From the NCBI RefSeq assembly GCF_003334405.1, contig NZ_QOWM01000060.1: a stretch of 639 nt of DNA; one strand, written 5' to 3'. This stretch comes from Escherichia coli (lineage in GTDB: Bacteria > Pseudomonadota > Gammaproteobacteria > Enterobacterales > Enterobacteriaceae). Positions 1-639 of the stretch are shown piece by piece (within the stretch, counting starts at the first letter, position 1; every line of letters starts with the position of its first letter). The translations under genes were made by a program, and so were the position numbers. The notes below the pieces were generated by a model. The model was not told the DNA's origin and made no database searches. It saw only the letters and a program-made list of their open reading frames with translations.

Positions 1-639
1 GACCGAAAGGAGACTGCCACGCATAATTTCTTCAGCCCTTTCCATTCAAACGTGAAATCAATAAGTTCATCAGGGACATCGCAAACAATATGAAGACGGA
101 TTTCTTCTCTGCCGTGACTCTTTTCACTCATTGCGTAACTGTCATGCGCTGGATTATTTAATTCTTTCAGCGGAAATTTTTCCTCAAAGGCTTTATTTAG
201 CCGCCCCTGGTTTCCTTTTACCGCGAATAAATAATCACCTCCCTGTTTTTGTATCTTCTCTGCAATATCTTTCTGGCAACCCATCGCATCAGTTGTGATG
301 ATTTTTCCTTTAATATCCAGCATGTTAAGAAGTTCTGGGATAGCTGTAATCTCATTAGATTTCTCATCCGTCTTGATCTGTCCGATGACCAGACTGTGCA
401 TTGTTGAGAACGCACTAATGACATGAATCGCTCCCCTGCGGCGACTCTTGTCATAAGAGTGCCGGAGCGTTTTTCCATCAATTGCAATGACGTCTTTATC
501 ATCTGAAGAATGGCAGTCACGCATCCAGTTAATAAAGCACTCGTGAAATTTTGCAGGACTGATACAGGATACAACTCTGGCAATGGTATCGTGAACAGGA
601 ATACCATTTTCAAAATCACCATATTGCTTCAAAAAATCG
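1..639 (-). CDS. ISAs1-family (H-repeat-associated) DDE transposase, internal fragment, 5' and 3' partial; complete codons span 638..3 and both termini lie outside the window
   Basis: Seen in sequence: manual translation of the reverse complement gives 212 consecutive sense codons with no stop, from GAT (Asp) at 638..636 to CGG (Arg) at 5..3. The other two minus-strand frames are interrupted. The protein is not low-complexity and carries motifs I recognise from ISAs1/IS4-like transposases: IAIDGKTL (Asp at 477..479), ITTDAMG (Asp at 288..290) and AVKGNQ (207..218). From memory it closely resembles the E. coli H-repeat (H-rpt) protein group (YhhI/YdcC/YbfL/YbfD-like), but I cannot assign a specific paralog or confirm identity without a database search. 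Confidence 0.85.
1..639 (-). mobile_element. Interior of an ISAs1-family insertion sequence (H-rpt-like element); terminal inverted repeats and target-site duplications not in window
   Basis: Inferred from the transposase CDS filling the window. ISAs1-family elements are single-ORF insertion sequences, so the window necessarily sits inside the element. GC is about 42% by manual count (266 of 639), which is AT-rich compared with a typical enterobacterial chromosome and consistent with acquired mobile DNA. Confidence 0.7.

Follow-up and report, generated by a model that had tools for sequence, protein, structure and literature searches.

A 639-nt AT-rich stretch of Escherichia coli DNA lies within the ISEc1/ISEc5 (H-repeat) transposase gene

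The stretch of DNA analysed here, 639 nt in length and referred to as the window, comes from the middle of the only gene in the 1291-bp E. coli insertion sequence ISEc1/ISEc5, the H-repeat, which belongs to the ISAs1 family. The best overall explanation of the observations, to which we assign a probability of about 0.93, is that the window is part of the ISEc1/ISEc5 transposase and that its low GC content is a lasting trait of a selfish element that is old and moves horizontally. The element is already known: the H-repeat was catalogued decades ago, and automatic annotation marks it in every E. coli genome.

The element and its transposase gene

Frame 2 of the minus strand is open from end to end across the window and spans 212 codons. 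These correspond to codons 56–267 of the 378 codons of the transposase gene (nt 638 down to 3), with nt 639 forming the last base of codon 55 and nt 2–1 the first two bases of codon 268. The 212-aa window fragment alone matched the NCBIfam equivalog model NF033564 (transpos_ISAs1) with 261.7 bits against a cut-off of 70 (E 8e-78), while the IS4 model gave 18.9 bits against a cut-off of 115. The guess in the initial annotation that the stretch derives from an insertion sequence was thus borne out, as the ISAs1-family transposase lies in a 1291-bp element with terminal inverted repeats. The features of the window are collected in Table 1. Asp109, Asp172 and Glu306, the last of which belongs to a WxIEN motif and lies outside the window, are invariant in an alignment of seven ISAs1-family transposases that are 25–87% identical to the query, and are predicted from this alignment to constitute the DDE triad.

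Table 1 Features of the 639-nt window.
Feature	Position (nt)	Strand	Basis
ISAs1-family (ISEc1/ISEc5, H-repeat) transposase gene, internal segment	1..639	-	open frame, NF033564, 100% DNA identity to yhhI/ydcC
DDE catalytic domain, part (Pfam DDE_Tnp_1, PF01609; residues 47-177 of the 212-aa translation)	108..500	-	i-E 2e-18
DDE_Tnp_1-associated N-terminal domain, C-terminal part (PF13808, DDE_Tnp_1_assoc; residues 1-39 of the translation)	522..638	-	i-E 4.4e-10
Asp109 codon GAT, first catalytic Asp of the putative DDE triad (motif AIDGK)	477..479	-	alignment + sequence
Asp172 codon GAT, second catalytic Asp of the putative triad (motif TTDA; TxDA in the alignment)	288..290	-	alignment + sequence

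At the DNA level, the window is 100% identical over its 639 nt to both yhhI and ydcC of E. coli K-12. The first of these genes adjoins rhsB and is annotated in RefSeq as 'ISAs1-like element ISEc1 family transposase', and the second adjoins the RhsE remnant and is annotated there as 'ISEc5 family transposase'. The window does not differ from ISEc1/ISEc5 and is that element; as the two genes have the same sequence throughout the window, it is not assignable to a single copy.

Other candidate features of the window were rejected. The small ORFs on the plus strand (23–55 aa) lie inside or overlap the strongly supported transposase frame and have no other support as genes. A 134-aa ATG-started ORF in frame 3 of the minus strand (window 218–622) overlaps the transposase frame in another phase, and nothing supports it as a gene. 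A search for structured RNA returned no Rfam match at E ≤ 1 on either strand of the window.

Alignment of the two K-12 loci showed that the sequence common to them starts and stops sharply and is exactly 1291 bp long. It holds one ORF of 378 aa. Elements of the ISAs1 family are ~1.2–1.5 kb in size (ISfinder), and the 1291-bp length and single ORF fall within the range of the family. The ends of the K-12 element, which lie outside the window, are CAGGGCAAGATTACGAAA and TTTGATGATCTTTCCCTG; when the right end is read as its reverse complement (CAGGGAAAGATCATCAAA) and compared with CAGGGCAAGATTACGAAA, the two form an imperfect inverted repeat that matches at 14 of 18 positions. Identical ends were found in nine further copies. 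Family membership and the insertion footprint described below suggest how such an element would move: the transposase would recognise the imperfect 18-nt terminal inverted repeats beginning CAGGG, and would then cleave the element ends and join them to a target cut with a 10-bp stagger. This staggered joining would generate a 10-bp target duplication.

Older literature describes the element as the H-repeat (H-rep) of Rhs elements, the genes of which are yhhI, ydcC, ybfL and ybfD. The name H-rpt is used for the H-repeat in the E. coli W genome paper (PMC3032704), and the transposase goes unmentioned in a paper on rhs evolution (PMC2935791). The hallmark of the ISAs1 family is an inverted repeat of 14–22 bp whose first bases are CAGGG, combined with a 10-bp direct repeat where the element has inserted (PMC11946415). 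The founder of the family, ISAs1 of Aeromonas salmonicida, shares this type of inverted repeat with ISEc1, as well as a single-ORF DDE transposase and a length of ~1.2–1.5 kb; the 10-bp duplication is seen at one of the nine ISEc1 copies examined. The relation is distant, as the hit on an A. salmonicida plasmid, in another host and context, has ~30% amino acid identity over 72% of the query.

Low GC content relative to the host and to other insertion sequences

The GC content of the window is 41.63%, in agreement with the ~42% of the initial annotation, which had suggested that such a value would be atypical if the host were an enterobacterium with about 50% GC, as would be expected for an insertion sequence. 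The premise about the host was correct: the host is E. coli, given the 100% identical match, and our background sample, six arbitrary 50-kb stretches of one K-12 chromosome (300 kb), has 51.1% GC and not the value of about 42% at which the composition of the window would carry no information. The local troughs of 32–35% that had also been pointed out fared differently. The figures themselves were right, as the 60-nt segments at 121–180 and 301–360 have 35.0% and 31.7% GC, respectively, but a 60-nt minimum of ≤31.7% was reached in 97.7% of 5000 mononucleotide shuffles of the window, and a spread between 60-nt windows at least as large as that observed occurred in 83.7% of them. The troughs were therefore rejected as a feature and are sampling noise.

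Sliding windows of 639 nt across the host sample had a mean GC content of 51.1% (sd 5.1%), and 5.0% of them had ≤41.6% GC (24 of 468 when non-overlapping windows were counted), which places the window at z = -1.85. The gene background consisted of 190 long-ORF proxies from the same 300-kb sample, rather than of a full annotated genome, and had a mean GC of 52.3% (sd 4.4) and a mean GC3 of 57.2% (sd 7.6). Relative to these proxies, the transposase gene falls in the lowest 3.2% both for GC (41.5%, z = -2.47) and for GC3 (40.6%, z = -2.18), offsets that are marginal by the usual 2-sd criteria. Its GC1 and GC2 are low too (lowest 5–8% of the proxies). The codon-usage distance to the pooled genes was unremarkable (Karlin B = 0.393), with 15.8% of the proxies being at least as distant. 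Measured against the 300-kb K-12 sample, the atypicality claimed for the window thus holds for GC and GC3, where window and gene lie in the 3–5% tail of the host, and does not extend to codon usage. The window is truly AT-rich for E. coli, yet it lies only in this 3–5% tail, a long way from the most extreme compositions in the genome. Since ~5% of E. coli windows from ordinary DNA reach the same AT-richness, the argument from composition made in the initial annotation is weak on its own, and the element could not have been recognised by composition alone.

Some regions of the host sample are far more AT-rich than the window. Among them are a gene for a 444-aa hypothetical protein with 27.6% GC in a CPS-53-type prophage region (L004 10406–11737) and the yhiJ/yhiL paralogue region (L001 9938–14479).

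The low GC content extends over the whole 1291-bp element, which has 40.2–40.5% GC in K-12 and 39–41% in every other copy examined, whatever the flank. Contrary to the initial annotation, such a low GC content is not what is expected of insertion sequences in general. The transposase genes of IS1, IS2 and IS3, which like ISEc1 are multi-copy transposable elements of the same chromosome and which belong to unrelated transposase families, have 54% GC, slightly above the host mean, and show no AT offset, unlike ISEc1. The same holds within the ISAs1 family, which is represented on plasmids by 939 records from more than 100 genera. In seven other family members, the GC content of the gene ranges from 42% (Proteus) to 68% (Rhodococcus) and stays within ~5 points of the flanks (gene minus flank, -5.3 to +4.6 points), whereas the corresponding value is -10.7 points for E. 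coli and -11.1 points for a copy with 87% identity that is carried by an Enterobacter IncFII plasmid. Because these seven members track their surroundings while the E. coli and Enterobacter copies lie ~11 points below theirs, the AT offset is a property of the ISEc1 clade and not of the ISAs1 family or of insertion sequences in general. ISKpn31 of Klebsiella KPC plasmids illustrates the difference. It also belongs to the ISAs1 family (48.5% amino acid identity over 96% of the protein), but its gene, with a GC of 52.8% and a GC3 of 0.60, is much nearer to its 58% surroundings than the ISEc1 gene is to its own, and it lies on plasmids next to Tn4401, while nearly all places occupied by ISEc1 are chromosomal.

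Copies of the ISAs1 family were repeatedly found beside type VI secretion genes (tssA, tssE-G and tssJ; tssD with a DUF4225 gene) or in polysaccharide/O-antigen clusters. The loci concerned are on an Enterobacter plasmid (L009), in Salinivibrio (L012), on a Proteus plasmid (L010) and in the E. coli gnd region (L024). This neighbourhood echoes the association with Rhs in E. coli.

Distribution and age of the element

A megablast match was present in 5343 of 5426 complete E. coli genomes (98.5%), each with 1–11 matching places (median 5), and many hits were 100% identical. These places comprise 24120 on chromosomes and 23 on plasmids. Individual sites are occupied far less regularly: the junction between yhhJ and the element is intact in 1826 of the 5426 genomes (34%), and that between pptA and the element in 2364 (44%). 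Single sites are therefore polymorphic among strains, and the element itself is near-universal in E. coli.

Plasmid-borne copies of ISEc1 were considered as a sign of recent movement and rejected, and three small, non-mobilizable records listed as 'plasmid' in PLSDB were not counted. In NZ_CP055112.1, the neighbours of ISEc1 are xerC and symE; NZ_OY757120.1 carries ISEc1 together with an Rhs dsORF-e4 gene; and NZ_OY754386.1 (L019) carries it with nrfB/nfrA. All three look like chromosomal fragments or excised circles rather than true plasmids, and the chromosomal-type neighbours of the latter two (Rhs dsORF, nrfB/nfrA) led us to read them as chromosomal fragments.

To assess the age of the low GC content, we compared the yhhI copy with the Enterobacter copy. 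Synonymous sites between the two are saturated (pS 0.71, dS ~2.1), while dN is 0.08 (dN/dS 0.04); among E. coli copies, dN/dS is 0.08–0.14. These ratios (0.04–0.14) indicate that the transposase protein is under strong purifying selection. GC3 is 0.37–0.41 in both the E. coli and the Enterobacter copies, whose surroundings have 51–52% GC. With synonymous sites saturated and GC3 low on both sides, the low GC3 has been kept across a very old split, which, along with the finding that 98.5% of E. coli genomes carry the element, argues against a recent, un-ameliorated import. The horizontal acquisition proposed in the initial annotation, if understood as a recent arrival, does not fit the same two observations, as a copy at synonymous saturation has an equally low GC3 in an equally GC-rich setting. 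The low GC belongs to the whole element and to its lineage; it is seen at synonymous sites (GC3 0.41, compared with 0.57 in host genes) and less strongly at codon positions 1 and 2.

The alternative to be weighed against these data is classical amelioration, in which the composition would be the fading fingerprint of a fairly recent transfer from a donor with ~38–42% GC, such as a member of the Morganellaceae or Vibrionaceae, that is drifting towards 51%. This explanation fits the position of the element ~10.7 points below its flanks and the occupation of each chromosomal site in only 34–44% of genomes. It also fits the next-closest relatives found (51–55% amino acid identity), which occur in Proteus terrae, Photobacterium and Salinivibrio; in Proteus, the copy has 42.1% GC in surroundings of 41.7%. 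Nevertheless, carriage by nearly all complete E. coli genomes marks the element as an old resident of the species, and two saturated copies that both keep a low GC3 in 51–52% GC surroundings are not expected under relaxation towards the host. In addition, the plasmid collection searched contained no relative with more than 60% identity in a low-GC host. On balance, we consider amelioration unlikely.

We instead read the low GC content as a stable mark in the composition of a selfish element that is old and moves horizontally, and as neither a local anomaly nor a sign of recent arrival. Candidate causes of its persistence are an intrinsic mutational or selective equilibrium, residence at AT-rich Rhs tips, or re-seeding from a low-GC reservoir. 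A stronger version, in which ~40% GC and a GC3 of ~0.4 are actively maintained in hosts of ~51% GC beyond synonymous saturation and are not a donor fingerprint, seems to us quite improbable. If it were true, the possible causes would include selection to keep the transposase under H-NS-type silencing, preferential residence at AT-rich Rhs tips or O-antigen loci, and continual re-seeding from a low-GC reservoir.

Transposition, recombination between copies and the use of composition

A footprint of transposition was found in the chromosome of E. coli CUVET23-CCU12 (NZ_CM172040.1; L023 2002–3292), where an intact 1291-bp ISEc1 copy sits inside a second H-repeat that has an internal deletion, with the perfect 10-bp direct repeat AATGAGGAAT on both sides of the nested copy. 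When the nested insert and one copy of the repeat were removed in silico, a continuous H-repeat sequence was recovered, which itself bears the internal deletion. It has 97.6% identity to the K-12 element, and the junction falls at element position 1222. The nested copy is thus a true transposition footprint with the characteristic duplication length of the family, and it arose within the history of E. coli. A target duplication was absent at eight of the nine distinct copies whose ends were examined, and neither of the two K-12 copies matching the window has one. According to the E. coli W genome paper (PMC3032704), no transposition of the H-repeat has been observed, and a study of the MG1655 mobilome reported no clear ISAs1 circles (10.1101/2024.07.17.603846). 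Given a duplication at one copy in nine and these two negative reports, present-day activity of ISEc1 is unproven.

The copies also appear to recombine with one another. The elements containing yhhI and ydcC (L001 and L002 19657–20947) differ at 14 sites in 1291 nt, all of them near the ends, and agree without a break over 936 nt (P = 2e-7 if the differences were uniformly spaced), a block that includes the window. This pattern suggests gene conversion between two copies ~2 Mb apart, and as a result of the identical run, ISEc1 cannot be told from ISEc5 within the window. Two further copies, at L022 (2001–3291) and L019 (3488–4778, minus strand), share the left flank aggaggtgagcagg adjoining nrfB and have different right flanks, which is consistent with rearrangement by recombination between copies. 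Such recombination may account for the absence of target duplications at most copies.

A second, degenerate ISAs1-family copy with a frameshift and an internal stop lies directly beside ydcC in the K-12-type RhsE region (L002 20889–22149). Its far end carries the inverted-repeat sequence TTTCATGATCTTGCCCTG, and two H-repeat elements are therefore adjacent at this region.

These observations bear on a further explanation, namely that the H-repeat is an immobile or domesticated part of Rhs/O-antigen loci, fixed and selectively retained, for example as recombination homology, with an AT-richness that matches the Rhs tips. Several lines of evidence agree with it. Copies lie beside Rhs tips in several strains, and at the yhhI locus (L001) the neighbouring Rhs tip continues the low-GC stretch of the element as far as position 22433. 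The transposase is under strong purifying selection, the copies appear to recombine, most of them have no target duplication, and the E. coli W genome paper states that no transposition has been observed. Against it, the nested insertion with its perfect 10-bp duplication is a true transposition in E. coli history, the copy number varies among genomes (1–11), and ISAs1-family members transpose in other bacteria (PMC11946415). The putative catalytic triad and both inverted repeats are also intact. We therefore regard immobility as highly doubtful. One possibility, related to the reading of an actively maintained low GC and like it quite improbable, is that the strongly conserved transposase serves the shuffling of Rhs tips or O-antigen clusters.

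The remaining view, that the window is ordinary host DNA from the lower GC tail whose composition is silent on its origin, draws on the 5.0% of 639-nt host windows in the 300-kb sample that are equally low or lower, the ordinary codon-usage distance and the pure noise of the local troughs, but it can practically be set aside, as the low GC spans all 1291 bp in every copy examined regardless of flank, the gene ranks among the lowest 3.2% in GC as well as in GC3, and its identity as a demonstrably multi-copy insertion sequence largely refutes such a view.

For the ISEc1/ISEc5 transposase, an offset of ~10 points in GC content places a 639-nt window only in the lowest 5% of E. coli windows. As other insertion sequences of the same genome show no such offset, composition by itself detects mobile DNA poorly, whereas the question is settled at once by homology, terminal repeats and site polymorphism. 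For specialists in insertion sequences, two minor points are added: the clean 10-bp target duplication in an element often described as never seen transposing, and the persistence of a low GC3 across saturated synonymous divergence.
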